A stretch of DNA of 32,000 nt from Nanobdellota archaeon (lineage in GTDB: Archaea > Nanobdellota > Nanobdellia > Nanobdellales > Nanobdellaceae), in contig AP031373.1 of NCBI GenBank assembly GCA_042850255.1, positions 660,001 to 692,000 on the forward strand. The letters are read 5' to 3'. Every line of letters starts with the position of its first letter. The first letter of the stretch is position 1. Shown in pieces: positions 7,597 through 28,722 of the stretch. The position numbers and the translations under genes were made by a program. The notes beneath the pieces were generated by a model. The model saw nothing but the letters and a program-made list of their open reading frames with translations, ran no database searches and was not told where the DNA came from.

Positions 7597-9513
7597 TTAA
7601 AAATAAGATAAATAATCCCTAATTATCCCAAATTTTTCTTTAAGATAAATATCTAATTTATATCCAGATCCTTCCTCTATAAAATCATTAACATCAAATC
7701 CATATTTTTCTTTTATTTTCTTTCTTATAATATTCCACAATTTTTTCCTTTCATCCCAAACATCATATTTATCAGATAAATTCTTCCACTTTTCTAATAC
7801 TTTATATAATTTATATATTTCTTCCCCCTTATAATTTTCAATATTTGCTAATACTAATCTATAATCTCCATATTTCATTGCCAATTCTCTTAATTTTCTA
7901 ATTCCATATCCTAAGGATATTAATGTATTTGCAATTCCAAAATATCTAGCAGATAAATCTATTAAATCTAAAATTTTTATATAATCCTTTAATTCATTTA
8001 CTCCGCTTTTATATAACTTATATCCTTCATAAAAACTTTTTCTAGCTAATTTCATACTTTCTCTTAAATATTTGTCTAATTCTTCAGGATTATCTAATAA
8101 TTTTTTACCTTTTTCAACCCATTCTTTCAATCCTTTATGAATTAAGAATCCATATATCCATTCAACATAATTCCAATGAACATCACTATGACCTTCTATT
8201 GCATTTAATTTTTCCAATATATTTTTCTTTATATTATTATCAATATTATTACTAAAATATAAAATATTATTACCCATATATTCTTCAAATAAAACTATTT
8301 TTTCAGGATTTTTTATTACTTCAATTTCATTTACTTTTTCTAATGTATTTATATCTAAAGGAGTTAAATCTAATGTAAAATCTGATAAATAATCTAGTAA
8401 TTTTATAGTTTTCTTTCCAGGATAATATACTTTACCATTATCTGCATCAACAAATAAAGGAGTTCCGTCCTTTATTATTTCTAATAATCCTTTTACTCCA
8501 ACTACAGTGGGAATTCCAAATTCTCTAGCAACAATTGCAGAATGAGATGTAATATTTCCTATTTCATTTACAATTCCAATTGCCTTTAACATATCTGGCA
8601 TCCAATCATTATAAGTAGTTTTCGATACTAAAATTTCTCCAGGTTTTAAATTTTCCAATTCTTTTTTATCTTTAATTATTCTTGCTAATCCATATACTTT
8701 TCCAGTACCTGTTGGTATTCCTTCTAAATATCCCCAATCTTTTGGAACATTAAATTCAAATTCTTTCCTTTTCTTATAAGTTATTGGTCTAGCTTGGAAA
8801 ATATATATTTTATCTTTTACTCCAAATTCTACATCAACAGAAAATCCGAAATATTTTTCTATTTCAATTATATTTTTTGCAATATTAATTATCAATTCTT
8901 TATCTAAATTAAAATATTCTCTTTTAATTTTAATATCAAAATTATTTTTATCTATATAATAAATATTTGTATTACCTTTTCCAGATACAACATTTTCTGT
9001 CAACCCTTTACTTATTTCTATTACAACTTCATCCTTATTTTCAAATATATTCTTTGAAAATCCAACTCCTCCATAATCTGTATTAATAAATTCTTGAACA
9101 ACAATACCCATTTTTATTTCAACTTCTTCATCTAATAATTCTAAATATTTTTTAACCTTTTCAGAATTTACAGATTTATATATTTCTTTTATACTATTTA
9201 ATAATTCTTCAAAATTATTTATGGGAAATATTGATATAAATTGACCTGCAAAAGAATGATAAATTAAATCTTCAATTGTTGCAGAACTTCTAGCAATAAC
9301 AGGAAAATTTAATTTATTTAAATATTCATTTAATTCTTCAATAAAATTATATGGAAAATCATTATTTTTTATATAATAATCATATACTTCTGTTGTTATA
9401 ACAAAACCTTTTGGAACATTAAATTTATTTATTAATTTAGATAAAGATAATGCTTTACCTCCAACTAAATTTAAATCTGAAGATTTATCTAATGGTAAAA
9501 TAAATTTATTCAT
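7597..9513 (-). CDS. PEP synthase / pyruvate-phosphate dikinase-like protein: ATP-grasp, phosphohistidine swivel domain and a non-canonical ~270-aa C-terminal domain
   Basis: 638 aa. The N-terminus is LVGGKALSL...VIARSSATIEDLIYHSFAGQF...FQARPIT. The swivel domain is VNEIGNITSHSAIVAREFGIPTVVG, with the catalytic His at codon 8544-8542. The C-terminus (...HSDVHWNYVEWIYGFL... then helical) resembles the C-terminus of the 4861-6492 protein (...DNWHTYNNILELSL...). It does not resemble a PEP-binding barrel. Confidence 0.8.
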   Translation of the reverse strand: MNKFILPLDKSSDLNLVGGKALSLSKLINKFNVPKGFVITTEVYDYYIKNNDFPYNFIEELNEYLNKLNFPVIARSSATIEDLIYHSFAGQFISIFPINNFEELLNSIKEIYKSVNSEKVKKYLELLDEEVEIKMGIVVQEFINTDYGGVGFSKNIFENKDEVVIEISKGLTENVVSGKGNTNIYYIDKNNFDIKIKREYFNLDKELIINIAKNIIEIEKYFGFSVDVEFGVKDKIYIFQARPITYKKRKEFEFNVPKDWGYLEGIPTGTGKVYGLARIIKDKKELENLKPGEILVSKTTYNDWMPDMLKAIGIVNEIGNITSHSAIVAREFGIPTVVGVKGLLEIIKDGTPLFVDADNGKVYYPGKKTIKLLDYLSDFTLDLTPLDINTLEKVNEIEVIKNPEKIVLFEEYMGNNILYFSNNIDNNIKKNILEKLNAIEGHSDVHWNYVEWIYGFLIHKGLKEWVEKGKKLLDNPEELDKYLRESMKLARKSFYEGYKLYKSGVNELKDYIKILDLIDLSARYFGIANTLISLGYGIRKLRELAMKYGDYRLVLANIENYKGEEIYKLYKVLEKWKNLSDKYDVWDERKKLWNIIRKKIKEKYGFDVNDFIEEGSGYKLDIYLKEKFGIIRDYLSYF

Positions 9514-9666
9514 AATATATTATTTTTTATGAAATATTAAAAATAATTTAAAAAATTAGGATAATAATAAAAACAACCATAAAGGAATAATATAAACACT
9601 TTTTTCTTCTTTTAATTCATCTTTACTTATATCCCTCTTTTACATATTCATTAATAGCTACTATAG

Positions 9667-9774
9667 ATTTTGTATCTTAATACAAAATATTTAATTTATA
9701 AAATATTATTTTTTGTATTGGAATACAAAACTTCTATATTATATAGATAATATTTTTTGTATAGAGATACAAAA
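9667..9774. repeat. Array of three perfect palindromes TTTTGTAT-N4-ATACAAAA spaced 43-44 bp apart
   Basis: IR1 is 9667-9688 (ATTTTGTAT cTTA ATACAAAAT, 9-bp arms). IR2 is 9711-9730 (TTTTGTAT TGGA ATACAAAA). IR3 is 9755-9774 (TTTTGTAT AGAG ATACAAAA). Centres are at 9677.5, 9720.5 and 9764.5. An extra half-site GAATACAAAAC lies at 9825-9835. Confidence 0.6.
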
Positions 9775-9904
9775 TATTGATTATCTAAAATAAGCTCTAG
9801 ATGTTTATATAGAAAAATATATAAGAATACAAAACCTGGATATAAAATTTTGATAGATCTAGTAGATAATTTGTTATACTTAAGAAGTCAAAATTTATTA
9901 TAGT

Positions 9905-10045
9905 CATAGCCCCATCATAATCAGGGGCTCCTGCACTCGACTTCCGTAAATGGCCCCTTCACATGCATCTGGGGCCGTTGCTTCAATGCTTCACTGCGCC
10001 CTAAATGGCTCCCTCATCTTATCCAGAGCCGTTGCTACACTGAGC
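9905..10045 (-). ncRNA. Candidate structured non-coding RNA of unknown class (GC-rich island with three G:C-stem hairpins); strand assignment is tentative
   Basis: About 54% G+C by hand count, against about 25% in the flanks. The hairpins are 9908-9913/9924-9929, 9952-9957/9971-9976 and 10007-10011/10026-10030. Hairpins 2 and 3 sit in a 55-nt tandem repeat whose stem substitutions are compensatory. The minus strand is favoured because stem 3 gains a U:G pair there (C.A on plus). In addition, the loops become GA-rich and K-loop-like on that strand (CUGA-UUA-UGAUG). Confidence 0.45.
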
Positions 10046-10075
10046 ATATATATTTTTATATATTATCTTATATGT

Positions 10076-10089
10076 AAGCTTATAAGCTT
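10076..10089. promoter_or_regulatory. Perfect 14-bp palindrome AAGCTTATAAGCTT upstream of the MNT/HEPN operon
   Basis: The sequence is its own reverse complement. It lies 36-49 nt upstream of the ATG at 10125 and just upstream of the TATA-like ATTATAAAAA. Confidence 0.3.
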
Positions 10090-10124
10090 CTAATATTATA
10101 AAAACTAAAAATAAATAATATATT

Positions 10125-10472
10125 ATGTCAGAACAAACAAAGACAATTGATAAAGAAATATTAAATAAAATTAAACAAATTATTTTAGATACTGCTAATA
10201 CTTATAATATTAAAATTCACAAAATTATTTTATTTGGATCTAGAGCTAGAGGAGATTACAGAGAATATTCAGATTGGGATATATTAATTGTAACTGAAGA
10301 TAAATTAGATAAAGAATTAGAAGATAATTTTTATTTAGAGGTTGGAAGGAAATTGGTAAAACTTAATATAATTCCTGAAATTATTATATCTGCTAAAGAA
10401 GAATTTGAAAAATATAAGTATTTAAAAGGCTTTATATATTATTGGGCAGATAAGGAAGGAATAATATTATGA
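10125..10472 (+). CDS. mntA: Minimal nucleotidyltransferase (MNT) antitoxin of a HEPN/MNT module
   Basis: 115 aa. ILFGSRARGDYREYSDWDILIV is the G-S-x9-11-D-x-D polymerase-beta-type NTase motif. Its stop overlaps the start of the downstream HEPN gene by 4 nt (ATGA). Confidence 0.8.
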   Translation: MSEQTKTIDKEILNKIKQIILDTANTYNIKIHKIILFGSRARGDYREYSDWDILIVTEDKLDKELEDNFYLEVGRKLVKLNIIPEIIISAKEEFEKYKYLKGFIYYWADKEGIIL

Positions 10473-10843
10473 ACGAAGATCTAAAAGAATTATTAGAATC
10501 TGCTAATGAAGATTTAGAAGCAGCAAAAATATTGTTAGATAAAAATTTATTTAAATCATCTGCTTTTTATTGTCAGCAATGTGTAGAAAAATACTTAAAG
10601 GCATATCTATTATATAAAACGGGATCTTACCCATTTATCCATTCTATAAAAAATTTAATTGAGCTTTGTATAAATGTAGATAAAGAATTTAATTATTTAT
10701 ATGATATAAATGCCGATAAATTAGATAAATATTATACAGGTACAAGATATTTCCCATTTTTAAAAATTACAGAAGAAGATGCAAAAGAAGCAATAGATAT
10801 TGCAGAAAATGTAAGAGAATTTATTTTAAAGAAATTATCTTAA
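10469..10843 (+). CDS. hepT: HEPN domain protein (putative toxin partner of the MNT)
   Basis: 124 aa, all-helical. The segment A.EDLEAAKILLDKNLFKSSAFYCQQCVEKYLKAYLL...HSIKNLIELC...GTRYFP follows the classic HEPN (PF05168-type) pattern. It is translationally coupled to the MNT gene. Confidence 0.75.
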   Translation: MNEDLKELLESANEDLEAAKILLDKNLFKSSAFYCQQCVEKYLKAYLLYKTGSYPFIHSIKNLIELCINVDKEFNYLYDINADKLDKYYTGTRYFPFLKITEEDAKEAIDIAENVREFILKKLS

Positions 10844-11266
10844 TTTTTCTTCTATTATTTTAATTAATTTTTCCGATAAAGATTTAACAAATTCCAAATA
10901 ATTTTTTGCCTCTTCTTCAGATATTTCTAATCCATAATATTTACTCTTATGTCTTTTATCTCTTAAATTATCTAACTTTAATATTATATCTTCCGAAAAT
11001 CCTAATTTTCTTAAATATGATATATCTGCAATATGTGAATAACTTTTATAACCATCCAAAGATAATATGGCATCTATTAATTCTATAATAGATTCATATG
11101 CAAATTCTAATTTAAATTTGGGAATCTTTAATTCTTCTGCAACCTTTAATCTTTCTGTTGCAGTTTTTAATAAAGATTTTGCTAAATTTATATCTTTTAC
11201 ATAAGTTCTTTTTATATCTCCTTTTTCTATAAAATATTCAAAATCTGGTATCATATTTTTATCCAA
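10835..11266 (-). CDS. HEPN domain protein (second module)
   Basis: 143 aa, helical. It contains ...LAKSLLKTATERLKVAEEL... and LDNLRDKRHKSKYYG, an R/H-containing HEPN-type motif. It overlaps the upstream wHTH-MNT gene by 16 nt, and its 3' end overlaps the convergent HEPN gene by 9 nt. Confidence 0.65.
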   Translation of the reverse strand: MDKNMIPDFEYFIEKGDIKRTYVKDINLAKSLLKTATERLKVAEELKIPKFKLEFAYESIIELIDAILSLDGYKSYSHIADISYLRKLGFSEDIILKLDNLRDKRHKSKYYGLEISEEEAKNYLEFVKSLSEKLIKIIEEKLR

Positions 11267-11763
11267 CCATATAATTTTACCCCATTTAAAATATTTTCTA
11301 ATAATTCTTTAGGATAATTTTTTATATCTCCAGAAAATACTTGTATTTTCCTAGATAATTCTTTTTCAAATTTTTCTAAATTTATTTCAAAATTTTTATA
11401 TCCGATATATAAATCTATATCAGATTTTTCAGTATCTGTTCCATAAGAATAAGATCCAAACAATATTATAACATCTGGAGAATAATTATCAACTAAATAA
11501 TTAACTAAATCTTTTAAAGATAAAATATTATATAATCTCTTTAGTTCTATAAAATATTTATTTTCAAGATTTCCTCTAATTAAATTAATTTTTTCTTTTC
11601 TTTCTATTGTTATTAAATTTTCATTTTCCAATTCCTTTATTATTTTTATTATGTAAGTATGTGAGATACCAGATAATTTTGCTATTTCTCTTATACTTAA
11701 ACCCTTTGTAGGATATTTAAATATTGGTATCAAAACTTTCCACTTGGTATCAAAAATTTCCAT
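11251..11763 (-). CDS. Winged-HTH fused to a minimal nucleotidyltransferase (DNA-binding MNT antitoxin)
   Basis: 170 aa. The N-terminal segment LSIREIAKLSGISHTYIIKIIKELENENLI is an HTH. The C-terminal VIILFGSYSYGTDTEKSDIDLYIG is the GS...DxD NTase motif. Confidence 0.8.
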   Translation of the reverse strand: MEIFDTKWKVLIPIFKYPTKGLSIREIAKLSGISHTYIIKIIKELENENLITIERKEKINLIRGNLENKYFIELKRLYNILSLKDLVNYLVDNYSPDVIILFGSYSYGTDTEKSDIDLYIGYKNFEINLEKFEKELSRKIQVFSGDIKNYPKELLENILNGVKLYGWIKI

Positions 11764-11783
11764 ATGGTATCAATATATACCAA
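11725..11783. promoter_or_regulatory. Three TGGTATCAA repeats at exact 20-bp phase, plus an inverted half-site forming TGGTAT-N6-ATACCA at the start of the wHTH-MNT gene
   Basis: TGGTATCAA occurs at 11725-11733, 11745-11753 and 11765-11773. ATACCA at 11777-11782 makes a palindrome with the third copy. On the minus strand this palindrome sits between the TATA-like TTTATAA (about -27) and the ATG (11763-11761). Two copies lie within codons 4-13. Confidence 0.5.
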
Positions 11784-11873
11784 TGTTTATAAATATTCTG
11801 ATTCAAAAATTTATCCAAATTGTTCCATAATGGAATAATTTTTCAAAAATTTTTTAATTCATATATAATAAAT

Positions 11874-12872
11874 TTAATAATAATCCTGGATAAATTCCTT
11901 TATATCATCTTCAGATATATAATATTTATACTTCTCTATATTCTTTACATCAATTAATACAGAAGCAATAGGTTTTATTATATTTTCATAAAATTCATAA
12001 AATTTTTTACTAACCTTTAATAATACAGGTCTATCTTTATTTTTTATCTTTTTTTCCAAAACTCCTAGAAGTTCTAATATATCAAGATGTCTTTCTATAT
12101 AATATATACTCATATTTTTATTTTCATAATCTAAGATCTCAACAGCATTAATAGTAGATTTTCCATAATCTACTATATATTTCAATATATCCTTGATTAA
12201 ATCTATTTCAAAATATTCATATTTAGTTTTTTCTTTAATATAATTTTCATCTATTTCTTTATTATTTATTTTTTCACAATATTCTTTTGCTTTATCCATT
12301 TTAACATTATAAATATCTCTAACATGATATATAAGTCTAGAATCTTCCAATATTCTTAGTACTTTTATTATATAAGTTTCAGGTATTTTATATTTATTTA
12401 AATAATTTCTAATATCTTTTTCTCCAAAATCTATATTTTCATTCTTTTTTATATAATTTACTATTCTCAAGAAATCATATATTCTAGTATTTTTAATAGT
12501 TTCTTCTAAATCTAATTTTATTTTTGAAATATTTTTATATATGTTATATGCAAATCCTCGAAAATCTTCTCCAAATTTTGATAATCTATATCCATCTTTA
12601 TCTTCTATAATTAATTTAAGTTCTTTCAATGTATTTATATTTAATGAATATATATCCAAATCTAAAGATTTAATTTTCTTATATTTTTCATAGCTCAATT
12701 TACATTTATTTAATATATCTAAAACCCTTTTCATTATTTCTTCCTCATTTCTATAATATTCATCAGGTTTAAAAATTAAATATGTTAATAATAAATCCTT
12801 TTTTGTAAGTAACTTATAAATTATCTTAGATACATCAGAGCTATTTAATATTATCTTATCTAATCCATCCAT
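11874..12872 (-). CDS. Tandem winged-helix family protein, short class (paralog G)
   Basis: 332 aa. It shares with the 16290-17273 paralog the segments MDGLDKII.../...DLLLTYLIFKPDEYY, YRLSKFGEDFRGFAYNIY and KVSKKFYEFYENIIKPI...NIEKYKYY. There are about three wHTH-like units, each with the pattern L..L...GLI....Y.L(S/T).xG. Its start lies 1 nt after the stop of the upstream long paralog. Confidence 0.7.
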   Translation of the reverse strand: MDGLDKIILNSSDVSKIIYKLLTKKDLLLTYLIFKPDEYYRNEEEIMKRVLDILNKCKLSYEKYKKIKSLDLDIYSLNINTLKELKLIIEDKDGYRLSKFGEDFRGFAYNIYKNISKIKLDLEETIKNTRIYDFLRIVNYIKKNENIDFGEKDIRNYLNKYKIPETYIIKVLRILEDSRLIYHVRDIYNVKMDKAKEYCEKINNKEIDENYIKEKTKYEYFEIDLIKDILKYIVDYGKSTINAVEILDYENKNMSIYYIERHLDILELLGVLEKKIKNKDRPVLLKVSKKFYEFYENIIKPIASVLIDVKNIEKYKYYISEDDIKEFIQDYY

Positions 12873-12873
12873 T

Positions 12874-14127
12874 TTAAATATGATTACTATCCTTATAATA
12901 CCAATACCTATATTTTTCGTTTTTTACTAGACCTTTATTTTTTAATTTTCTTAATATATAATATAACACTGGATTATCATATCCTGTATGTTGTGATAAT
13001 TCTTCAATACTTAATTTTTTATATTCTTTTAGTACTTCTAAGACTCTATTTATTTTTTCCTCCTTATATCTTTTTGAATTAATATATAGATTAATAAGTT
13101 TTGATATTTCTTCTTTATTTAAACTATAATCTTTATAATTATACAATTTAAAAGGATTTTCCGATACTTCTTTAATTTCTTCTATAAGATTATATAATTC
13201 AAGTAATTTTTCAGTAGGTTTTATTATAAAATTCTTATCTTTACCTTCCAATATCTTTAAATGCACAAGTACTGATATTATATCCTTAATAGTTCTCTCA
13301 TTCTTTTCATACTTTTTAACCAAATCATAAATATTTGATATAGGTTCCTTACTTTTTACAATATCTCTTATAACTCTTTTAAGAACCTTAAGATTAAATC
13401 TTCCATAATCCGCCTTTTCTTTTATATATTCCCTTATTTCATAGTTGTCTTTCCTATAAATATTTTTATAAATTTTTATAGCTTCTTTACGATTAATTTT
13501 ATAATATTCATCTAAATTCTTTGGTTCTTCATATTTTATTAATCCATAATCTTTAAGTTCTTCTAAATCATATCTAATACCTTCTGCTTTAGCATTTATA
13601 TTTTTAGTTATACTTTTAATACTCGTATTCTCTTTATTTTTTACAATATATTCAATTATTTTTAACTTATTTGATACTTTATTACTTTTATTAACATTTA
13701 ATATATCTTGAGGATTAATTCCTAATTCTATAAATCTTTTTAATACATAAGATATAAAACCTTTTGTTAGTTCTCCAAAAGATGATAGTTTATAACAAAT
13801 TTTTCCATTATTGTATACTTCTTCAGTTACTCCTATTTCTGTTAATATCCCCCTTCCTTCTCTATTCTTTATATAAGATTCATAGGTTGAATCTTCTACA
13901 GGTATAATTTCTTCATAATTTTTTGGGTTTTTTATTATATCATCTAAAGATAAATTAAGTAATCTTGCTGTACTTTCCATTAAACTTTTTCCATTACAAT
14001 ATAACTCATCTTTTTCTAAAGATAAATGGGTAATTGTTCTATGTAAGTTATTAAATAATAATATAATACTTATAAGTCTTTCCTCCTTTGATTTTTTAAT
14101 AAACTCCTCTAATGTGGTATTAGTCAT
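12874..14127 (-). CDS. Tandem winged-helix family protein, long class (paralog F, about four wHTH units)
   Basis: 417 aa. The family motifs are TLEEFIKKSKEERL, YKLSSFGELTKGFISYVLKRFIELGINPQDIL, IIEYIVKNK and IIKPTEKLLELYNLIEEIKEVSENPFKLYNYKDY. The terminal wHTH is LSIEELSQHTGYDNPVLYYILRKLKNKGLVKNEKYRYWYY. Confidence 0.7.
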   Translation of the reverse strand: MTNTTLEEFIKKSKEERLISIILLFNNLHRTITHLSLEKDELYCNGKSLMESTARLLNLSLDDIIKNPKNYEEIIPVEDSTYESYIKNREGRGILTEIGVTEEVYNNGKICYKLSSFGELTKGFISYVLKRFIELGINPQDILNVNKSNKVSNKLKIIEYIVKNKENTSIKSITKNINAKAEGIRYDLEELKDYGLIKYEEPKNLDEYYKINRKEAIKIYKNIYRKDNYEIREYIKEKADYGRFNLKVLKRVIRDIVKSKEPISNIYDLVKKYEKNERTIKDIISVLVHLKILEGKDKNFIIKPTEKLLELYNLIEEIKEVSENPFKLYNYKDYSLNKEEISKLINLYINSKRYKEEKINRVLEVLKEYKKLSIEELSQHTGYDNPVLYYILRKLKNKGLVKNEKYRYWYYKDSNHI

Positions 14128-14160
14128 TATATAATAGTAAAAATAATTTTTAAAATACTA
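14128..14160 (-). promoter_or_regulatory. Conserved promoter/leader cassette TTTAAAAATTA-N5-6-ACTATTATATA-ATG (copy upstream of paralog F)
   Basis: The minus strand reads TAGTATTTTAAAAATTATTTTTACTATTATATA-ATG. Near-identical cassettes precede paralogs E and B. The A/T box is centred about 23 nt before the ATG, which is consistent with an archaeal TATA box and a leaderless transcript. Confidence 0.45.
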
Positions 14161-14232
14161 ATTCAGGTATTTGTTTTAAAATAATATAAAATTTTCTGGA
14201 GAATATAATATACTAAAATAAAATTTAAAATA

Positions 14233-15339
14233 CTATTTACTTTCCTTATTATATATTTCTATTAATTTTTTAATCTTTTCTTCTTTCAATTTATATCCTT
14301 TATAATTATATAATTTATAAGGATCCCTAGATACTTCTTCAATTTCTTTTATAACATTATATAATTCAAATAATTTTTTAGTTGGTTCTATTGATATAAT
14401 AGTTTTTATATTATAACTATTATTTTCTAATATTCCTAAAAAATTTAGTATTTTTATTATATCCATTGCAGCCTCATAATTTATTCCTAATTTTTTCATT
14501 AAATCTTCTGCATTAATTTCTTTTTTATTTTCATAAATATTTATTATATATCTTATAGATTTTTTTATATTTTTAGAATTAAATCTTTTATAGCCAGTTT
14601 CTTCTTCTATATATCTTCTAATTTTATCATTAATTTTTAAATTTTTTATTATTTGATCGTATTCCCTTGCTTTATCTATATTTATATAATATACAGATTC
14701 TTTATTATTATTATAACTTATTCCTTTACCTACTATTAATCCTCTATACATCATGTTTTTTAGATGATACCTTAATAAATTATCCTTTATATTTAATTTT
14801 TTATAAATTTCTGTTAAATTTATTTTTTTATTTGTTTTATATTCATTTACTATATATTCTATTATTCTTATCTTATCATTTGGATAATATCCTTCTCTAT
14901 TACCTTTATTTATGTAGAATATATATTTTGGAGATATTTCTAATTCCACAAATTTTTCTAAAATATATGATATAAATCCTTTAGTCAATTCTCCAAGATA
15001 TGATAATTTATAACCTGTTCTATTATTTTTATCTTTTGCTATTATAATTATTCCAAGTTCTAATAATTTATTATATAAATCTTGTCTATGTTCACTAGGT
15101 TTCAATGGCAAAAATTCTTTATATAAATCATAATTATTCTTTACATCTTCTTTATTTAATCTCATATTATTTAAAATATCTTTTATTATTTCTCCTTTAT
15201 TATAATAAATTTTTCCTTCTTTCAAAGATATATTGATAATAAATCTTCTAGTATTTGATAACAATAATATCAATGTATCTAGCCTTTTTTCTATAGTTTG
15301 ATTAATAAAATTATCTAATGAATTATCTTTATTTATCAT
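14233..15339 (-). CDS. Tandem winged-helix family protein, long class lacking the terminal wHTH (paralog E)
   Basis: The ORF track extends to 15378 (MVCYLKINCNYYI...). Alignment to the paralogs (SLDNFINQTIEKRL) and the conserved ACTATTATATA-ATG cassette support the Met at 15339, giving 368 aa. The family motifs are YKLSYLGELTKGFISYILEKFVELEISPKYIF and IEPTKKLFELYNVIKEIEEVSRDPYKLYNYKGY. Confidence 0.7.
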   Translation of the reverse strand: MINKDNSLDNFINQTIEKRLDTLILLLSNTRRFIINISLKEGKIYYNKGEIIKDILNNMRLNKEDVKNNYDLYKEFLPLKPSEHRQDLYNKLLELGIIIIAKDKNNRTGYKLSYLGELTKGFISYILEKFVELEISPKYIFYINKGNREGYYPNDKIRIIEYIVNEYKTNKKINLTEIYKKLNIKDNLLRYHLKNMMYRGLIVGKGISYNNNKESVYYINIDKAREYDQIIKNLKINDKIRRYIEEETGYKRFNSKNIKKSIRYIINIYENKKEINAEDLMKKLGINYEAAMDIIKILNFLGILENNSYNIKTIISIEPTKKLFELYNVIKEIEEVSRDPYKLYNYKGYKLKEEKIKKLIEIYNKESK

Positions 15340-15375
15340 TATATAATAGTTACAATTAATTTTTAAATAACATAC
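15340..15375 (-). promoter_or_regulatory. Conserved promoter/leader cassette (copy upstream of paralog E)
   Basis: The minus strand reads GTATGTTATTTAAAAATTAATTGTAACTATTATATA-ATG. It overlaps the last codons and stop (15356-15358) of the coiled-coil gene. Confidence 0.4.
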
Positions 15376-16309
15376 CAATTTTATTCTTTAAATCCATTAT
15401 ATTATAATTATTTAATAAATCATTTATATCAGAATAATTGATTTTTTCAATATTCATCTTAATATTTGCCAGTTTTTCAGAAATTTCAAATGAATTATTA
15501 TAATTATATAATTTTATTAAAAATTCAATAAAATATGTTTTATATTTTATTTTCTCTAATATTTGATCAATATAATTTATATCTGAAGATTCTATTTCTT
15601 TTATTAAACTATTTCCTATTATCTTTATTCTTTCATAAATTTTTATTATATTTTCAACATTATTAATATCCAATTTATTAAATTCATCCAATAATTTCTT
15701 TTCTAAATCTACTAAATAAATATAATCAATTTTATATGAGTCTTTCCCTATGTTGTCTATTTTTCTATCATAATAATATTTTGGTAATTTAGTAAATATT
15801 TCATTATAGATTTTCTTAAAATCTTTGTATGCATCTTTAAATTTATCATAAAATATCCTTAAATTATCTATACCATCTATAAGATATAAATAACTCCATA
15901 TTTCCTTATTATTTTCAATATAATTAATTAAATAGTCTAGTTGTTTATTTAATATATTAATTTTTTCATTTATTTTATTTAAATTATATTTTATATCAAC
16001 AATTTCTTTTGCTTTATTAATATCTCTTAAATGGTAATATATAATAGATATATCCTTTATTCTTTCGGATTTATCCATTATATCTTTTATTTTTTTAATT
16101 TTTTCCTTTTCTATATTTATCATTTTTATTTTTATAGAATTGTTTAGATAATAATTTAGGTATGAATTTATTTCTTTTAATTTATCATTTAAATAACTTA
16201 TAACAAATTCTTCATTTTCATTATTTTCTTTAAATTTTTTAGCATTATTAATAACATTTTCTAATATTTCATTAATTATACATAAATCATCACAATTCTT
16301 GAAATTCAT
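15356..16309 (-). CDS. Coiled-coil / all-helical protein embedded in the winged-helix paralog block (gene D)
   Basis: 317 aa, extremely N/I/K/E/Y-rich with long heptad-like runs (KINEKINILNKQLDYLINYIENNKE). It lacks the family motifs of its neighbours. Its start overlaps the upstream paralog by 20 nt. Confidence 0.55.
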   Translation of the reverse strand: MNFKNCDDLCIINEILENVINNAKKFKENNENEEFVISYLNDKLKEINSYLNYYLNNSIKIKMINIEKEKIKKIKDIMDKSERIKDISIIYYHLRDINKAKEIVDIKYNLNKINEKINILNKQLDYLINYIENNKEIWSYLYLIDGIDNLRIFYDKFKDAYKDFKKIYNEIFTKLPKYYYDRKIDNIGKDSYKIDYIYLVDLEKKLLDEFNKLDINNVENIIKIYERIKIIGNSLIKEIESSDINYIDQILEKIKYKTYFIEFLIKLYNYNNSFEISEKLANIKMNIEKINYSDINDLLNNYNIMDLKNKIGMLFKN

Positions 16310-17273
16310 TATATTTATTCTTTAATATATCAATCAGATTTTCTTTATATATCTCAGAATATTGAGAATATTTTTTCAAATTATTTATATCATTGGATAT
16401 ATCATTAATAGGTTCTATTACTTTTTCATGAAATTCTATTAACTTTCTAGTTGGTCTTATATAAACAGATTTTTCTTTATCTTCTCTATTAAGTACTTTA
16501 TACTTTCTTAATTCTTCTAATATACTTTCTATATATCTAATATTATAATCATTTAAATAATCAGCAATTTCTGAAGCATCTATTATAGTTTTTTGGCATT
16601 CTTTTAAATATTCTAATATTTCTTTAATTTTATCAGGATCTGACAATTTTTTAATTTCCCTATTTTTTATTTCATTATAAAATTTATCAATATTGTCAAT
16701 ATTAATGCTATATATTTTCCTAATATAAACTATAAAATTAAGATCTTCTAACAATTTCAAAGTCTTTATTATATAAGTTGAAGATATACCTTTCTTATCC
16801 AAATTTTCTTCCAATTTTCTTCTAGTAATATATTGATCTTTATCTTCTGCAATATAATCTATTAAATTTACGAAGTCTTCTATTCTAATATTTTTAAAAA
16901 TATTTTCAACATTCAATCCAATTATTATAGAATTGTAGAATATATAAGATATAAATCCCTGGAAATTTGCTCCTAATTCAGATAACTTATAACCATTTTT
17001 ATATTTTTCTACTAATTTCATATTTTCAAGATCTTCTATATACTTATCTTTTTCATAATATTTATCAGGATCTAAATATAAATATTTCAAAAGTAGATCA
17101 TTATTTGAAGCTAGGTTAGAAATTATATTTATTATATCAGTACGAATATCTTTTTTTGATAGCATTTGATCTAGAGTTCCCATTATATAATGGTAACAAT
17201 ATATTTTTTTAAATATGCTACGATCAAAGTAATTTTTATGAAAATTATTCATCATAACACCATTTATTATCAT
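16290..17273 (-). CDS. Tandem winged-helix family protein, short class (paralog C)
   Basis: 327 aa as tracked. The true start may be the ATG at 17255/17252 overlapping the stop of paralog B, or 17183 (MGTLDQML aligns with MDGLDKII of paralog G). The family motifs are DLLLKYLYLDPDKYY, YKLSELGANFQGFISYIFYN and IRPTRKLIEFHEKVIEPINDISNDINNLKKYSQY. Confidence 0.65.
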   Translation of the reverse strand: MIINGVMMNNFHKNYFDRSIFKKIYCYHYIMGTLDQMLSKKDIRTDIINIISNLASNNDLLLKYLYLDPDKYYEKDKYIEDLENMKLVEKYKNGYKLSELGANFQGFISYIFYNSIIIGLNVENIFKNIRIEDFVNLIDYIAEDKDQYITRRKLEENLDKKGISSTYIIKTLKLLEDLNFIVYIRKIYSINIDNIDKFYNEIKNREIKKLSDPDKIKEILEYLKECQKTIIDASEIADYLNDYNIRYIESILEELRKYKVLNREDKEKSVYIRPTRKLIEFHEKVIEPINDISNDINNLKKYSQYSEIYKENLIDILKNKYNEFQEL

Positions 17274-18486
17274 CTCTTTTTACAATCCCCATTTTTTCTA
17301 ATCTTTTTAATGTATATGATAATGTTCCTGTATTATATTTAGTATATTTACTTATTTCACTTAATGTTAAACATTTATTCTTATTTAAAATATCAATTAT
17401 TTTATCTTCTTTTTCTTGAAGATCCTTTTTCCATTTATAATATATAACTAATAATTTTGTTATATCATCTTTCGTTAATTTATTTTCATATATTTTATAA
17501 TCTTTTATTTTATCGGGATTTTTTGATATTTCTTTTATTGGTAATATTATTTCATTATATATATTAACTAATTCATTATTGATTTGAATATAAGATTTAT
17601 TTATTTTTTCTTTATTAATTACATCTTCTTTACTAAGAATAGATATATATTTATTTATTATAACAAGACTCATACCTCTTTTATTTATTAATTCTCCAGG
17701 ATCTAATATAGATTTTTCATTTTTTATAATATAATTTAATATATATTCAATATTTTCAATACTATAATTACTAATTTTATATTTTTTCATTTCTTCTTCT
17801 GGATTTTCATATAATTTATTATAATATTCCTTTGCCTTATCTAAATTTACCTTATATATTATAATAGGTTGTCTATTTTTATTATAAATTATTAATCCTA
17901 ATTTGGATAATCTAAACAATATTAATCTAACTATAGATTCTGATAATTTGTATGTATCTTCAATATCCTTCATACCTATTTTCTTATCCTTATTTTCTAC
18001 AAGATATTCTATTACATTTATTGTATTTACAGGATTTGCCTTTTCAACAGATTTTCTAGTATGACCAAATAATTCATAAGGATTTATGTTAAATTTTACA
18101 TACTCTTTTAACAAATAGTTTAAAAAACCTTCTATATCTTCTCCAAAAGAAGATTTAATATATCTATTTTTATCTACTTCTATAATTATCCCAATTTTAG
18201 TTAATATTCCTTCTTTTTCATTTATTGTTGATAAATATTTAAAATAAGTAGTAGATCCTGGTATAATATCTTTTACTTTAACATTATTATCTATTATATC
18301 ATCCAAATTTTTTCCTATAAATTCTAAAAAATCGTTTCTAATCTCTTCTCCATTTTTATAAATTTTTCTTCTTTTTAATGATAAAATAGTTAACATTCTT
18401 ATTATGTGATTATTTATTCTTGACAAATCTTCTAATCTTTTATCTTCAGGTTGTTTTTTAAAATCTTCTATTGTATAGTCTTTCAT
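17245..18486 (-). CDS. Tandem winged-helix family protein, long class (paralog B, about four wHTH units)
   Basis: 413 aa. The family motifs are TIEDFKKQPEDKRL, SSFGEDIEGFLNYLLKEYVKFNINPYELF, VIEYLVENK and ELVNIYNEIILPIKEISKNPDKIKDYKIY. The terminal wHTH is LTLSEISKYTKYNTGTLSYTLKRLEKMGIVKRDDNKWCY. Confidence 0.7.
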   Translation of the reverse strand: MKDYTIEDFKKQPEDKRLEDLSRINNHIIRMLTILSLKRRKIYKNGEEIRNDFLEFIGKNLDDIIDNNVKVKDIIPGSTTYFKYLSTINEKEGILTKIGIIIEVDKNRYIKSSFGEDIEGFLNYLLKEYVKFNINPYELFGHTRKSVEKANPVNTINVIEYLVENKDKKIGMKDIEDTYKLSESIVRLILFRLSKLGLIIYNKNRQPIIIYKVNLDKAKEYYNKLYENPEEEMKKYKISNYSIENIEYILNYIIKNEKSILDPGELINKRGMSLVIINKYISILSKEDVINKEKINKSYIQINNELVNIYNEIILPIKEISKNPDKIKDYKIYENKLTKDDITKLLVIYYKWKKDLQEKEDKIIDILNKNKCLTLSEISKYTKYNTGTLSYTLKRLEKMGIVKRDDNKWCYDE

Positions 18487-18514
18487 TATATAATAGTGGT
18501 ATTAATTTTTTTAA
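18487..18514 (-). promoter_or_regulatory. Conserved promoter/leader cassette (copy upstream of paralog B)
   Basis: The minus strand reads TTAAAAAAATTAATACCACTATTATATA-ATG. It fills the entire 28-nt gap after the TAG stop of paralog A. Confidence 0.4.
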
Positions 18515-19168
18515 CTATGTTATATACTTATTTATGTTTTTAGGATTCTCTACTACGTCAAATATTGGATATATAAGATTATATATTTTTCTTAGTTCTT
18601 CTTTTGGTTTAATTATATGATATCCTTTTCTACCTTCGATTTTATAATATTCTATTAAATTATATCCTAGTAGTTTATTTAACGCATTACTACCCAATTT
18701 AGAATTTTTTAATTTAAAGCATTGATGTATTTCTTTACATTCTATACTTTCTTGTTCTCCTATATTTCTTATAGCCTCCATAATATATTTATTTCCTATA
18801 ATTTCTTTTGGAAATATATTTGAGTTTTCATAAATATCTTTTAACATCTTTGATATAAATTTTTTCATAATTTCTCCAAGTTTAGATATTTTATAGTTAT
18901 CATCTACTTTTATTAATAGTCCATATTTATTTAAATTATTTAAATAATTCGATATAAAACGCTTAATATTATCTATCTCTTTTAAATCTTCTTTTGGTAT
19001 TTTATAATATTTTAATAATTCTCCTAATATTTCTTCTTTACTATATTTTTTATTCTTAAGTGAATTTAAAATATCTACATAATATTTATTATTTAATAAT
19101 CTAAATATAATATTTAATCTTTCTGTTTTTGATTTTTTTATAAAGTTATCTAAAGTATTATCTTCCAT
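18515..19168 (-). CDS. Tandem winged-helix family protein, truncated-architecture member (paralog A, about two wHTH units)
   Basis: 217 aa. The family motifs are TLDNFIKKSKTERLNIIFRLLNN, YKISKLGEIMKKFISKMLKDIY and IIKPKEELRKIYNLIYPIFDVVENPKNINKY. Confidence 0.65.
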   Translation of the reverse strand: MEDNTLDNFIKKSKTERLNIIFRLLNNKYYVDILNSLKNKKYSKEEILGELLKYYKIPKEDLKEIDNIKRFISNYLNNLNKYGLLIKVDDNYKISKLGEIMKKFISKMLKDIYENSNIFPKEIIGNKYIMEAIRNIGEQESIECKEIHQCFKLKNSKLGSNALNKLLGYNLIEYYKIEGRKGYHIIKPKEELRKIYNLIYPIFDVVENPKNINKYIT

Positions 19169-19268
19169 TATTATATATTCTAAGAATTTTTTATAATATT
19201 TACTATATAGTAGTATAATACTATATTCACAAAGTAAAGGTTAAAAAATTTTTAATTATTTTTGTTAC

Positions 19269-19715
19269 ATGGATATGAAGTATGAAGAGTTTATTAAAAA
19301 AGTAATAGAATTTAAAGAGAATATTAAAATTATATATAAAGATTTTTATTTATATTTATATGGAAAAAATAATAAAAAAGAAAAACAAGAACTAGAAAAT
19401 AAAATAAAAGATTCTATATATAAATTTATGGAAGATATAAAAGTCTTTTATAATAAATATAAAAATGAAAATTTATCAATAAAAGATAAAATAATATTGG
19501 AAACTTTGTTGGGATATTCTATTATTTCAAAACATTTATTAGATAAGATAATAATTAATAAGGAGAAATATGATATTGAAGATCTGGATAATCTTGTTTC
19601 TGCAATTCCAAGAGCTTCTAGATATAGTATAGAACTTAAAGAATTGGGTAATGAAATATTAGAATGTAAATATATAGATAGAAATATTGTATGTCAGATA
19701 AAATATAAAGAATAA
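19269..19715 (+). CDS. Hypothetical helical protein (148 aa), divergent from the winged-helix block
   Basis: Clean ORF of genome-typical composition that shares a 100-nt divergent promoter region with paralog A. No motif recognised. Confidence 0.45.
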   Translation: MDMKYEEFIKKVIEFKENIKIIYKDFYLYLYGKNNKKEKQELENKIKDSIYKFMEDIKVFYNKYKNENLSIKDKIILETLLGYSIISKHLLDKIIINKEKYDIEDLDNLVSAIPRASRYSIELKELGNEILECKYIDRNIVCQIKYKE

Positions 19716-19747: not shown

Positions 19748-20302
19748 ATGGTGGAGATATGTAAAAATATAGATGAGGGAATGGCAGTATATAAATTATC
19801 ATTAGAAATGATAGATAATTTAAAAGATGTAAATTATGAAGATATGTATCATTTATCAACAATATTGGAAGAATGTTATAAAAATCTATATAATAGAAAA
19901 TCTATTAATTTGGATGAAATAAATAAATTAAATATTATAAAAAGAGAAGCTGAAGTATTAAAATATTTATCTTATTGTTTAAAAAATAATAAGATAGGTA
20001 AAGAACATATACCTTACATTAAGAATTCTATTGAAAATCTTTTAGAGGCTAAAAAATATTTGGATTTTGTAATATTTAATTTAGAAATATCACAAAAAAA
20101 TTTAGATCAATACTTAAGTAATAATAAAAATGATACAGGAATGATAACGAATTATAATTTTATATCAGATGTAACAAATTTATTAAAAAGTTTGTATGAT
20201 ATTATTGATCCGGAAAAATTATTTAATAATGATATATCAAAATTTGATACTATAATAAGATATACTAATAATTTATTAAATGAATCAAAGAAAAAACAAT
20301 AA
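19748..20302 (+). CDS. Hypothetical helical protein (184 aa)
   Basis: Clean ORF lying 32 nt downstream of the previous gene. It looks all-helical by composition. No motif recognised. Confidence 0.45.
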   Translation: MVEICKNIDEGMAVYKLSLEMIDNLKDVNYEDMYHLSTILEECYKNLYNRKSINLDEINKLNIIKREAEVLKYLSYCLKNNKIGKEHIPYIKNSIENLLEAKKYLDFVIFNLEISQKNLDQYLSNNKNDTGMITNYNFISDVTNLLKSLYDIIDPEKLFNNDISKFDTIIRYTNNLLNESKKKQ

Positions 20303-20349: not shown

Positions 20350-21912
20350 ATGGGGTTTCCAGTTGATGTAGATTTTTTGAGGAATAACATAGAATTATAT
20401 AAAGAAACTTTTAAAAAAAGAGGGTTGGACGAAAGTTTAGTAGATAAGGCTATAGAATTGGATAATAAAAGAAGGGAGTTACAAAGGGAAGTAGATAAAT
20501 TAAAACATAAGAAAAATTTATATTCAAAGTTTTATGGTTATGCATTACAATATAAAAATGGAAAAATTAGTAAAGAAGAATTTATTAAAAATGCAATAAA
20601 TTTGGGATTTGATATACATGAGGGAGATATTGATTTAGAAAGATTAAAGGAAGATATAAAAAATATTGATGAAGAAATATTAAAAAAGGAAGAGGAATAT
20701 AAAAATGTAGAAAACAATTTAATAGATTTATTATGGAACTTTTCAAATTTATTATCTCCAGAAGTTCCAATAGGTGATGAAAGTAACAATACTCCAGTAA
20801 GGTTTTGGGGAGTACCAAGGGTATATGATATAAATTTATTTAAAGAACAGACTGAAAGATTTGGATGGAAAATAATAGAAATAGCAAATATAGATGAAAA
20901 ATATGTAAAAAATAAAGAATTATTAAAAGAATTAATTGAAATGTTAGATGATAAAAAAGATTTTACAGAAATAAACTTTAATGATGTATTAGATTTTGAA
21001 AAATTAAATCAAGATAAGATTGTTGTATATAAAAAAGTAAATCATGAATTAAAGCATCAGTATGATATATTAAAAGAATTTAATTTAGCAGATACAGATA
21101 TTGCAGGAAACGTTTCAGGATCAAGATTTTACTTTGAATTTAACGCATTATCATTATTAGATTTAGGATTAAGTTTAGAAGGAGTAAAATATATGATGAA
21201 AAAAGGTTATAAATTTACAATACCTCCATATATGTTAAAAAGAGATATATTAGATGGAATAATTACTTTAGATGATTTTGCAGATATGATGTATAAAATT
21301 GATGGAGAAGATTTATATTTAATAGGAACTGCAGAGCATCCTATTACTGCATTATATTATAATTCTATAATAAATGAAGATGAATTACCAATAAAAATTA
21401 CAGGATGGAGCCCATGTTTTAGAAAAGAAGCTGGAGCACATGGAAAAGATACAAAAGGATTATTTAGATTACATCAATTCCATAAAGTAGAACAATATAT
21501 ATTTTGTAAACCTGAAGATTCTGAAAAATATCATCAAGAATTAATAAAAAATGCACAAGAATTTCTAGAAAAATTAAATATTCCATATAGGACTGTAATA
21601 ATTGCATCAAAAGATATGGGAAAAAGGAATTATAAACAGTATGATATAGAAGGATGGTTCCCTGGACAACAAAAATATAGGGAATTAATATCAGGATCGA
21701 ATGTTACAGACTGGCAAGCAAGGAGATCTAATATTAGATATAGGAAAAAAGATAATAGTTTAGAATATGTACATACACTAAATTGTACATTAACTGCAGT
21801 ACAGAGAACAATAACATGTATATTAGAAAATAATTATGATTATAAAAATAATAGAATATATATACCAAAGATATTACAAAAGCATTTAGAGGGAGAATTT
21901 ATATCAAAATAA
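20350..21912 (+). CDS. serS: Seryl-tRNA synthetase (bacterial/common type) with unusual insertions
   Basis: 520 aa. There is an N-terminal coiled-coil arm. Class II motifs include GSRFYF, LIGTAEHPITALYYN, CFRKEAGAHGKDTKGLFRLHQFHKVEQY and YDIEGWFPGQQKYRELISGSNVTDWQARR...HTLNCTLTAVQR. Confidence 0.9.
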   Translation: MGFPVDVDFLRNNIELYKETFKKRGLDESLVDKAIELDNKRRELQREVDKLKHKKNLYSKFYGYALQYKNGKISKEEFIKNAINLGFDIHEGDIDLERLKEDIKNIDEEILKKEEEYKNVENNLIDLLWNFSNLLSPEVPIGDESNNTPVRFWGVPRVYDINLFKEQTERFGWKIIEIANIDEKYVKNKELLKELIEMLDDKKDFTEINFNDVLDFEKLNQDKIVVYKKVNHELKHQYDILKEFNLADTDIAGNVSGSRFYFEFNALSLLDLGLSLEGVKYMMKKGYKFTIPPYMLKRDILDGIITLDDFADMMYKIDGEDLYLIGTAEHPITALYYNSIINEDELPIKITGWSPCFRKEAGAHGKDTKGLFRLHQFHKVEQYIFCKPEDSEKYHQELIKNAQEFLEKLNIPYRTVIIASKDMGKRNYKQYDIEGWFPGQQKYRELISGSNVTDWQARRSNIRYRKKDNSLEYVHTLNCTLTAVQRTITCILENNYDYKNNRIYIPKILQKHLEGEFISK

Positions 21913-24731: not shown

Positions 24732-24742
24732 AAATAAAAGAC

Positions 24743-25054: not shown

Positions 25055-25103
25055 ATATAAAAATATAAATAAGAATTTTAAATTTTTATTAGAAAAAACA
25101 ATA

Positions 25104-27524: not shown

Positions 27525-27546
27525 GTATTATTGATAACAATTACTA

Positions 27547-28719: not shown

Positions 28720-28722
28720 AAA

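Follow-up and report, generated by a model that had tools for sequence, protein, structure and literature searches.

A tandem array of divergent multi-winged-helix proteins in the genome of the Nanobdellota ectosymbiont YN1

Why would an archaeon with a genome of 773,326 bp carry six divergent copies of one protein, arrayed along a single strand? The question is raised by a 32,000-nt stretch of Nanobdellota DNA (contig AP031373.1, positions 660,001 to 692,000; hereafter the window), which is identical to part of the genome of YN1, an ectosymbiont of Sulfurisphaera ohwakuensis (ISME J 2024, PMC11420986). At 11874–19168 the window, whose G+C content is ~20%, holds seven consecutive minus-strand open reading frames (ORFs), transcribed in the order g7, g6, g5, g4, g3, g2, g1. 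A first-pass annotation, made from the letters alone, had read six of the seven as homologs built from stacked winged-helix (WH) domains and had proposed that they form a DNA- or protein-scaffolding system or a defense system. The genes have attracted little notice: g2 (YN1_7640) and g5 (YN1_7670) are both annotated "hypothetical protein", the YN1 genome paper (PMC11420986) makes no mention of the genes of the six-paralog array, and a literature search found no paper connecting winged-helix proteins with Nanobdellota. Our analysis identifies the array as a native, lineage-specific expansion of a rare family of multi-WH proteins, most plausibly DNA-binding ones.

The block and its six paralogs

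All seven ORFs are present, and a second, independent gene caller, run on an identical contig from a sequencing run, called the same seven products. Every peptide quoted in the first-pass annotation was found in the translations. The block is laid out as follows, in order of transcription; bit scores are those to a profile hidden Markov model (HMM) described below.

19169–19268 (no strand): 100-nt divergent intergenic region upstream of g7; presumed array promoter region
18515–19168 (−): g7, 217 aa; shortest paralog and first in the array; N-terminal WH1, one hybrid WH, and a C-terminal helix; net charge +12; 53.8 bits
17245–18486 (−): g6, 413 aa; long form, four WH units; net charge +11; 302 bits
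17263–17427 (−): WH4 of g6, C-terminal ArsR/MarR-type winged helix, residues ~354–408; Pfam HTH_5, MarR_2, MarR, HTH_24, and HTH_27 above gathering cut-off at residues 359–407
16290–17273 (−): g5, 327 aa (320 aa from an alternative start); short form with degenerate N-terminal motif, lacking WH4; net charge −3; 93 bits
15356–16309 (−): g4, 317 aa; all-helical orphan, unrelated, embedded in the array
14233–15339 (−): g3, 368 aa from the ATG at 15339; three WH units, lacking WH4; most basic copy, net charge +21 on the 381-aa reading; 172 bits
14128–14232 (no strand): g3–g2 gap, 105 nt; the sole sizeable gap within the array; AT-rich, low-information repeats only
12874–14127 (−): g2, 417 aa; long form with four WH units; net charge +14; the copy modeled with AlphaFold2 (AF2); 256 bits
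12892–13074 (−): WH4 of g2, C-terminal ArsR-type winged helix, residues ~352–412 (AF2 secondary structure); residues 361–402 above cut-off for Pfam HTH_24 (26.2 bits) and HTH_5 (26.0 bits)
11874–12872 (−): g1, 332 aa; short form with degenerate N-terminal motif, lacking WH4; net charge +3; 84.5 bits

The genes are tightly packed. There are gaps of 28 nt (g7–g6), 16 nt (g4–g3), and 1 nt (g2–g1) and overlaps of 29 nt (g6/g5) and 20 nt (g5/g4), and the 105-nt interval between g3 and g2 may hold an internal promoter. The ORF of g3 reaches a TTG at 15378, but its start is probably the ATG at 15339, the 368-aa product having been called by two pipelines.

The similarity among the six is strongest between g2 and g3 (165 bits, 38% identity over 353 columns in composition-corrected BLASTP) and between g2 and g6 (147 bits, 31% over 422 columns), followed by g1–g5 (112 bits), g3–g6 (87), g1–g6 (62), g1–g3 (56), and g3–g7 (47). 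These pairwise alignments cover most of each protein at 25–38% identity, and MAFFT aligns all six paralogs end to end. Thus, the similarity is not confined to short islands, as had been thought at first: it runs the full length of the proteins, and the islands are its best-conserved segments. Since all six paralogs are rich in K, I, N, and E, we also applied a composition-independent test, in which an HMM was made from family members outside the cluster only. The six score 53.8–302 bits against this outgroup model, whereas the best of 1,400 composition-matched shuffles reaches 3.5 bits. The homology claimed at first reading therefore persists under alignment with statistics, and these comparisons make it near certain that six of the seven genes are true paralogs of one family.

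The seventh gene, g4, stands apart. It does not match the outgroup family HMM, and hhalign gives it a probability of 0.1% of belonging with the family; no Pfam, NCBIfam, PADLOC, or PHROG match was obtained at the thresholds used, and no homolog was found in the fetched loci of relatives or in JGI metagenomes. Its G+C content is 14.7%, F, I, N, K, and Y make up 60% of its residues, and its single-sequence AF2 model is all-helical but unreliable, with a predicted local distance difference test score (pLDDT) of 44.7.

Domain architecture and comparison with known families

The AF2 model of g2 (mean pLDDT 84.7, predicted template-modeling score 0.75) contains four helix-helix-helix-hairpin units. 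WH1 (residues ~1–135) has an insertion, a wing at 101–114, and a long helix at 116–135; WH2 spans 153–223 and WH3 246–323; and WH4 (360–410) lies behind a long linker helix. Each of the first three units is followed by a helix. The predicted template-modeling score suggests that the chain, as modeled, forms one compact and well-defined body, not a row of separate domains. By alignment, g6 matches g2 in having four units; g1, g3, and g5 are without WH4 and keep three units each, the N-terminal motif being degenerate in g1 and g5; and g7 has WH1 plus one hybrid unit. The early view of the proteins as stacks of two to four WH units is thus upheld by structure prediction in g2 and by alignment in the other paralogs.

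The units are of two kinds. WH2, WH3, and WH4 are mutually homologous (hhalign probabilities 96.6%, 96.4%, and 93.0%), whereas the WH1 core shows no detectable similarity to any of them in profile-profile comparison, and the N-terminal 143-residue domain has no sequence relative in the PDB even at E ≤ 10. Against the PDB, the family profile finds single DNA-binding WH domains only, best PscE on WH4 and TFE (1q1h) on WH2. A recurrent pattern marks the WH units: a recognition helix, "GLI", a wing, and then a helix with Y-x-L-[ST]-x-x-G. The ancestral protein, of ~430 aa, had an acidic, family-specific N-terminal WH-like domain, which is its best-conserved part, followed by three basic, mutually homologous winged helix-turn-helix (wHTH) units of ArsR/MarR type, most with a following helix.

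Charge and conservation are distributed unevenly along the chain. The net charge of g2, g3, g6, and g7 is +11 to +21, that of g1 is +3, and that of g5 is −3. Within g2, WH2–WH4 carry +5 to +7 each, and WH1 and the C-terminal helix are acidic. Mean pairwise identity is ~40% in the WH1 wing and the next helix and 38% in the helix after the WH3 wing, as against 21–25% in the helix-turn-helix and recognition-helix parts of WH2 and WH3. Nearly all columns that are invariant, or close to it, across the family are aromatic, Gly, Pro, or Leu, with no catalytic-looking constellation, and none of the two Cys and 2–5 His per protein is conserved in the alignment. Pfam and NCBIfam detect no enzymatic or ligand-binding domain in the block, only generic wHTH families, in agreement with the first reading.

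The generic families in question are those of well-known regulators. HTH_5 of ArsR/SmtB (PF01022, cut-off 22 bits) matches WH4 of g2 at 26.0 and of g6 at 34.4 bits and none of g1, g3, g5, and g7; MarR (cut-off 24.6) matches g6 at 27.6 bits and MarR_2 (cut-off 27) at 34.0 bits, whereas g2 stays below both cut-offs at 18.0 and 22.3 bits. WH2 of g2 also exceeds the cut-off of Pfam HVO_A0114. Many relatives in other genomes, like g2 and g6, match ArsR, MarR, IclR, and TrmB HTH models above Pfam cut-offs, and the basic units concerned (WH4 of g2 and g6, WH2 or WH4 of many relatives) pass the gathering cut-offs of PF01022, PF01047, PF12802, and PF13412. At the domain level, then, g2 and g6 contain what these profile matches identify as bona fide ArsR/MarR-type WH units. 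However, regulators of those families have one WH per chain, act as homodimers, and often bear a metal or ligand site, whereas here three such units and a novel N-terminal WH-like domain share a 330–500-aa chain that has no sensor residues. The six proteins depart from the ~100-aa, single-WH metal-sensor form of ArsR/SmtB, having chains of 217–417 aa with 2–4 WH units and scoring 30.3 bits against a cut-off of 55 for NCBIfam HTH_metalloreg. They depart equally from the ~150-aa MarR form, a single WH with flanking dimerization helices: there are four WH units in one chain, and the PDB matches to MarR proteins are single units.

Larger multi-WH proteins offer partial likenesses. In a Foldseek search of the whole g2 model against the PDB and BFVD, nothing matched over the whole chain at E < 1e-3, single WH units alone giving matches; the best whole-chain E-value was 0.015, and template-modeling (TM) scores were ~0.09–0.26. 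The top whole-chain matches, all insignificant, were the SelB C-terminus, RPC62, UFL1/DDRGK1, AlkX/YcaQ, and proteasome lid subunits. The SelB C-terminus (1lva, 2uwm) resembles the family in having four consecutive WH units in one chain and gave the best whole-chain match (E 0.015, probability 0.91, 294 aligned columns); but the TM score is 0.15–0.22 and the root-mean-square deviation 26 Å, the family has neither the GTPase/EF-Tu part nor any sequence similarity, and the SelB units bind SECIS RNA. TFE/TFIIE-alpha and Rpc82 share WH units with an extra helix, and the TFE WH domain 1q1h is among the best PDB matches to WH2 (E 7e-4 to 2.6e-5). Yet TFIIE_alpha (PF02002, cut-off 22.9) scores 18.2 bits on g2 and 11.4 on g6, with no zinc ribbon, Cys-rich motif, or coiled-coil; RPC82 HTH (PF08221, cut-off 23.4) scores 13.3 bits on g6, and Foldseek matches to RPC62 (2xub/5afq) have E 0.06–0.13 and TM 0.12–0.17. 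YN1_7880, a further member of the family in YN1, reaches 28.9 bits with RPC82 HTH, on WH4 only, where generic models match too. Kinship with TFE or Rpc82 was rejected on these grounds: the matches fall on single WH units that score better with generic wHTH models.

The KITE proteins (ScpB, MukE, Nse1/Nse3) and the ESCRT-II subunits (Vps22/25/36) are likewise made of tandem WH domains only and form homo- or heterodimers encoded beside their partners; here a helical protein, g4, shares the operon. They have two WH units, however, against three or four in this family, whose relatives are usually solitary. No ScpB Pfam match was obtained at E ≤ 1, nor is there an SMC or ScpA gene in the window or in the relatives' loci; EAP30/Vps25 also gave no match at E ≤ 1, and no ESCRT-III or Vps4 gene lies nearby. 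A phage protein named EAP30/Vps36 provides the sole link to ESCRT-II, through a structural match of 55 residues confined to one WH. Thus, the likeness to ScpB, ESCRT-II, Rpc34, and TFIIE that had been pointed out at first comes down to the fold that WH domains share in general: their Pfam models are absent at E ≤ 1 or, for TFIIE_alpha and RPC82 HTH, stay below cut-off on single WH units, and Foldseek TM scores to multi-WH chains are 0.12–0.22.

For Csa3 and CasR, PADLOC models give E 9e-10 to 4e-7 on g2 and g6, but these matches, like those to NCBIfam, cover only the wHTH and linker-helix end of the models (~106–190; for example 106–173 of 179 and 124–191 of 202), no CARF domain is present, and the window has no cas genes. 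AlkZ/YcaQ HTH_42 gives no Pfam match; its Foldseek counterpart 9zd6 is found at E 0.19 and TM 0.12, and the model has no beta-barrel. A kinship of WH4 with Z-alpha domains, to which the PDB matches ZBP1 and PKZ (E ~3e-4) had pointed, was rejected by eye, as the helix-3 Asn and Tyr that contact Z-DNA are not conserved in g2 or g6. WhiP/Cdt1, the crenarchaeal/eukaryotic double-WH replication initiator, is another archaeal stand-alone multi-WH protein without an enzyme domain, and the host of YN1 belongs to Sulfolobales; no NCBIfam or Pfam match suggests a link. At the protein level, the family has the defining features of none of ArsR/SmtB, MarR, TFE/TFIIE-alpha, Rpc82, ScpB/KITE, ESCRT-II, Csa3/CARF, or AlkZ. 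In keeping with the first reading, no well-characterized regulator family takes in the whole proteins; the profile matches are generic and to single WH units.

Relatives, neighborhoods, and origin of the array

An exhaustive HMMER search of 1.84 billion cluster representatives returned 61 proteins at E ≤ 1e-3, of which 26 reach E ≤ 1e-10, with many full-length matches. The family is rare, and wherever a source is named it is a Nanobdellota/DPANN-type archaeon: Nanobdella aerobiophila (MJ1_0363), Candidatus Nanoclepta minutus, a Nanopusillaceae metagenome-assembled genome (MAG), hot-spring MAGs labeled Aenigmatarchaeota, and YN1 itself (YN1_7880). No family-level Pfam or NCBIfam model exists, as expected of the uncharacterized family first supposed; the 26 scanned members match generic wHTH families only, and a few of the remaining relatives, which are metagenome proteins, carry the automatic names "MarR family regulator" or "TFIIE alpha subunit", the latter in one JGI record. 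Among the cluster copies g6 comes closest to family members from elsewhere, being 32% identical to an Aenigmatarchaeota-labeled homolog (E 1e-53); no close relatives of it were found in JGI metagenome contigs. Searches of IMG/VR viral contigs, BFVD, and PLSDB plasmids yielded no relative.

The 13 loci that we fetched represent 10 distinct places in other organisms. At most of them the family gene is solitary and sits amid housekeeping genes (ribosomal proteins, RTC, MgtE, Elp3, RsmB, RNase P subunits, MiaB, POR, tRNA-modification and transporter genes), and no neighbor is common to all fetched loci. No tandem array like that of YN1 occurs at any of the 10 places, which bears out the suggestion that the array is lineage-specific. 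Two loci nevertheless join family units. A high-GC archaeal contig (ENA ERZ27237313, 3746–6788) holds two long paralogs in tandem, of 478 and 476 aa, adjoining GlyRS, and both lineages of this pair recur in other samples in the tree. On a Logan contig (SRR22388241, 2192–4939), the 915-aa protein P0058 is a natural fusion that joins two units head to tail, a short one lacking WH4 (48–371) and a long one with WH4 (471–875); its halves are 24% identical (E 1e-25). Together, these sequences suggest that two diverged units work together. Farther along the ENA contig are a 678-aa protein with an N-terminal ArsR-type HTH and a 758-aa protein, both of unknown function, and a PhdYeFM/ParE toxin-antitoxin pair follows the fusion gene on the Logan contig. 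Short forms also stand as intact genes in other genomes (MJ1_0363, P0025, P0033). The gene of Ca. Nanoclepta minutus (MWMI01000002.1, 10007–11169 of the fetched locus) is split into ORFs of 297 and 87 aa that cover its N- and C-terminal parts; it is either a pseudogene or the product of a frameshift in the MAG assembly.

N. aerobiophila (AP019769.1) permits a direct comparison of gene order. Its single short-form gene, MJ1_0363, lies between DUF2250 and a 206-aa gene, in a segment (9595–15346 of the fetched locus) syntenic with window positions 24411–30363: DUF2250, a 206/211-aa gene, a MiaB-like radical SAM gene, a 172/178-aa gene, and POR. The corresponding slot in YN1 (24732–25080, ~350 bp, with a doubtful 103-aa ORF) contains no family gene or remnant detectable by tblastn. 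The DUF2250 protein (window 24411–24731, minus strand, 106 aa), which is the divergent neighbor of the family gene in N. aerobiophila, has a single WH and matches the family profile weakly (15 bits) and a WH unit of P0025 at E 2e-5. Compared with N. aerobiophila, YN1 has an extra 390-aa orphan (27547–28719) ahead of POR.

The history of the array was traced with a neighbor-joining tree (Poisson distances, 200 bootstraps). The cluster copies lie on long branches; g1 pairs with g5 at 100% and g2 with g3 at 94%. A group of these two pairs with MJ1_0363 and P0025 has 73% support, and g6 is attached weakly. The branching is consistent with duplication of a long-plus-short pair, giving g6–g5 on the one hand and an ancestor of g2/g3 with g1 on the other, after which the long gene would have duplicated and g3 would have lost WH4. 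The remaining YN1 member, YN1_7880 (P0007, 500 aa), the seventh of the family, lies about six genes past the right end of the window and has an extra inserted WH unit, five in all. It is 39–47% identical to other members of a slowly evolving, widely found clade and groups with P0008 at 93%; because of this grouping, it is likely the ortholog of the conserved single-copy gene. The G+C content at third codon positions of the cluster genes (0.08–0.12) equals that of SerRS, PyrG, MiaB, and POR. Since it matches these housekeeping genes, the array is native rather than a recent import: it is a lineage-specific tandem expansion.

What flanks the array in YN1 is of several kinds. Two toxin-antitoxin modules do adjoin the block directly, as first reported, in the form of convergent, overlapping MNT/HEPN-type pairs. 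The plus-strand pair (10125–10843) consists of a 115-aa minimal nucleotidyltransferase (MNT) and a 124-aa HEPN protein (Pfam E 2e-30); the minus-strand pair (10835–11763) consists of a 143-aa protein matching the PADLOC candidate PDC-M05B (1e-8) and a 170-aa wHTH-nucleotidyltransferase fusion (MntA-like). On the other side, divergent from the array, two helical orphan ORFs of 148 and 184 aa (19269–19715 and 19748–20302, plus strand) have no homolog in the fetched loci; the 148-aa ORF weakly matches the C-terminal part of the Csx1 model in PADLOC (E 9e-4), with no obvious Rx4-6H motif. Beyond them, a long seryl-tRNA synthetase of 520 aa (20350–21912, plus strand) has ~210 residues between its N-terminal coiled-coil (6–106) and residue 319, where the match to the class II core begins, a spacing that points to an insertion. 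Farther to the left, two paralogous proteins that resemble phosphoenolpyruvate (PEP)-utilizing enzymes, of 543 aa (4861–6492, plus strand) and 638 aa (7597–9513, minus strand), have a PPDK_N ATP-grasp and a mobile His domain and no match to a C-terminal PEP/pyruvate domain; a HAD-family hydrolase (6510–7580, plus strand) lies between them. Because the genes leading from PEP to pyruvate are reported missing in YN1 (PMC11420986), these truncated enzymes may have some other role.

What the proteins may do

The reading that we favor, and to which we give somewhat better than an even chance, is that the array encodes native multi-WH DNA-binding regulators or architectural proteins acting in pairs. 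Its parts differ in strength: paralogy and architecture are near certain, DNA binding is held with moderate confidence, and pairing with less. The basic WH2–WH4 would bind DNA, providing several DNA-reading heads per chain, and each protein would serve as a transcription regulator or a nucleoid-architectural protein. Since conservation is lowest in the recognition helices, whereas WH1 and the inter-domain helices are kept, the copies may have acquired new DNA specificities on a conserved frame. The copies would pair or form higher heteromers, the basic long g6 and g2 with the neutral short g5 and g1 that lack WH4, and overlapping or abutting reading frames would yield long and short partners in stoichiometric amounts. 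Of the scaffolding system proposed at first, it is the DNA-binding side that gains, from the basic ArsR/MarR-type WH2–WH4, and the pure protein scaffold that loses. The companion idea, that long and short paralogs act together, draws some support from the natural short-plus-long fusion and the tandem pair; the pairing itself is inferred.

Several points weigh against this reading of the array. The AF2 model of g2 was built on an alignment of the six paralogs only, which is shallow; only g2 and g6 have a wHTH Pfam match above cut-off, and the units of g1, g3, g5, and g7, which have none, were assigned by alignment to the g2 model. Nor is DNA the only ligand of WH domains: they bind proteins and RNA too, as do the top Foldseek chains (SelB, RPC62, UFL1), whose matches are insignificant. 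Heteromers are no ancestral requirement, given that most relatives are solitary, and DNA-binding pairs leave the helical orphan g4 without a role. A search for inverted and direct repeats in the intergenic regions of the array identified no operator, the repeats being AT-rich and uninformative. A 22-bp near-palindrome at 19205–19226 (ATATAGTAGTA / TAATACTATAT), an inverted repeat 91% complementary between g7 and the 148-aa ORF, could be an operator or a product of chance in 80% A+T DNA.

It is useful to contrast DNA binding with a purely protein-binding role, in which the paralogs and g4 would form a heteromeric multi-WH complex, like KITE/kleisin, ESCRT-II, or TFIIE/Rpc82-Rpc34, that holds proteins rather than reading DNA. 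The proteins are tandem WH domains with no enzyme part, their genes are translationally coupled, the fusion and tandem pair elsewhere imply association of units, and conservation is highest not in the recognition helices but in the acidic WH1 and the helices between domains; the best whole chains in Foldseek, moreover, are multi-WH scaffolds or adaptors (SelB, RPC62, UFL1/DDRGK1, proteasome lid subunits). But those matches have E ≥ 0.015 and TM ~0.09–0.22; ScpB, EAP30, Vps25, and Rpc34 have no Pfam match at E ≤ 1, TFIIE_alpha and RPC82 HTH stay below cut-off on single WH units, and neither the window nor the surroundings of any relative contain a gene for SMC, kleisin, ESCRT-III, Vps4, or RNA polymerase. 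Nor can g4 be a conserved partner, since it has no relatives in the fetched loci or JGI metagenomes. Neither sequence, fold, nor neighborhood thus lends the scaffold specific support, and as WH2–WH4 are ordinary ArsR/MarR-type units with a basic surface, a regulatory or architectural role is likelier; we regard a pure scaffold as unlikely. A related idea, which we hold more doubtful still, is that the proteins are subunits of a hitherto undescribed heteromeric multi-WH complex specific to Nanobdellota-type ectosymbionts, for example a chromatin or general transcription cofactor of long-plus-short pairs comparable to TFE-alpha/beta or Rpc82/Rpc34, with the YN1 isoforms perhaps tied to free-living and host-attached states.

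The remaining alternatives are weaker. That the array is a fast-evolving module of immunity or symbiont-host conflict, tied to the adjacent MNT/HEPN pairs, would fit its abutting two such modules, one of them matching the PADLOC candidate PDC-M05, the high divergence of the paralogs, the uniqueness of the array to the YN1 genome, and the difference between this region and the syntenic one of N. aerobiophila. Yet PADLOC-DB 2.0 finds no defense-specific component in the block. It gives g1, g4, g5, and g7 no match, and on g2, g3, and g6 it recovers nearly only the wHTH part of CRISPR-associated regulator models, besides weak matches (E ≥ 2.7e-5) to PsyrT, SoFic, PDC-M05A, and mad1 over the linker helix and WH4 end; those on g2 and g6 are the wHTH end of Csa3, CasR, and CARF3, without a CARF or effector domain. 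The block has no nuclease, ATPase, or other effector, viruses and plasmids yielded no relatives (IMG/VR, BFVD, PLSDB), and G+C by codon position is that of the host genome. The neighborhood survey tells against it as well: the HEPN/MNT adjacency is not conserved among relatives, which lie amid housekeeping genes with only PhdYeFM/ParE near the fusion and a weak PIN match 9 kb off in Nanobdella, so that toxin-antitoxin or defense co-occurrence is largely absent in related genomes. The defense idea had drawn on the adjacency alone, and it now appears improbable. Decay is more improbable again. As neutral debris drifting AT-rich, with truncated copies nearing loss, the duplicates would explain the loss of WH4 from four of six copies and of most of WH2 and WH3 from g7, the long branches, the high F, I, N, K, and Y content (0.46–0.53), and the split homolog in Ca. 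Nanoclepta minutus; but all seven frames are intact over 217–417 codons at 15–21% GC, where stops arise very often, each copy keeps the family-defining positions, the tight reading-frame coupling is preserved, and short forms are intact as genes elsewhere. The last possibility, and to our mind the most doubtful, is that the WH stack recognizes structured RNA, as in SelB, rather than DNA. The top Foldseek match in the PDB is the four-WH C-terminal SelB fragment (1lva; 2uwm, with SECIS RNA, follows at E 0.19), and several relatives lie near genes of RNA processing or modification (RTC, RNase P subunits, RsmB, Elp3, MiaB). Those E-values, with TM 0.12–0.26, are not significant, however; there is no Pfam match to the SelB WH domain, the HTH families matched by sequence (ArsR/MarR/IclR) bind DNA, and no gene neighbor is common to all loci.

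What is new here is the protein itself, in which several wHTH domains are combined with a novel N-terminal domain so that one chain holds four units. Lineage-specific wHTH expansions are common in archaea, and nothing in the array points to a new mechanism. Even so, a 773-kb genome gives ~1% of its DNA (7.3 kb, seven genes) to one uncharacterized all-winged-helix family and keeps a further member elsewhere, and this family has no Pfam or NCBIfam model and a defining N-terminal domain without a solved relative. Because YN1 and N. aerobiophila are both in co-culture, it is directly testable. In Nanobdellota, as in other DPANN archaea, genomes are very small, and few regulators can be recognized that would control expression across free and host-attached stages. 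If the proteins form a complex, it would be a new entry among the few multi-WH assemblies known; if they are neither complex nor regulators, the array is an ordinary lineage-specific expansion of wHTH proteins; and if they are regulators, they would be candidates for the layer of regulation that these symbionts are missing.

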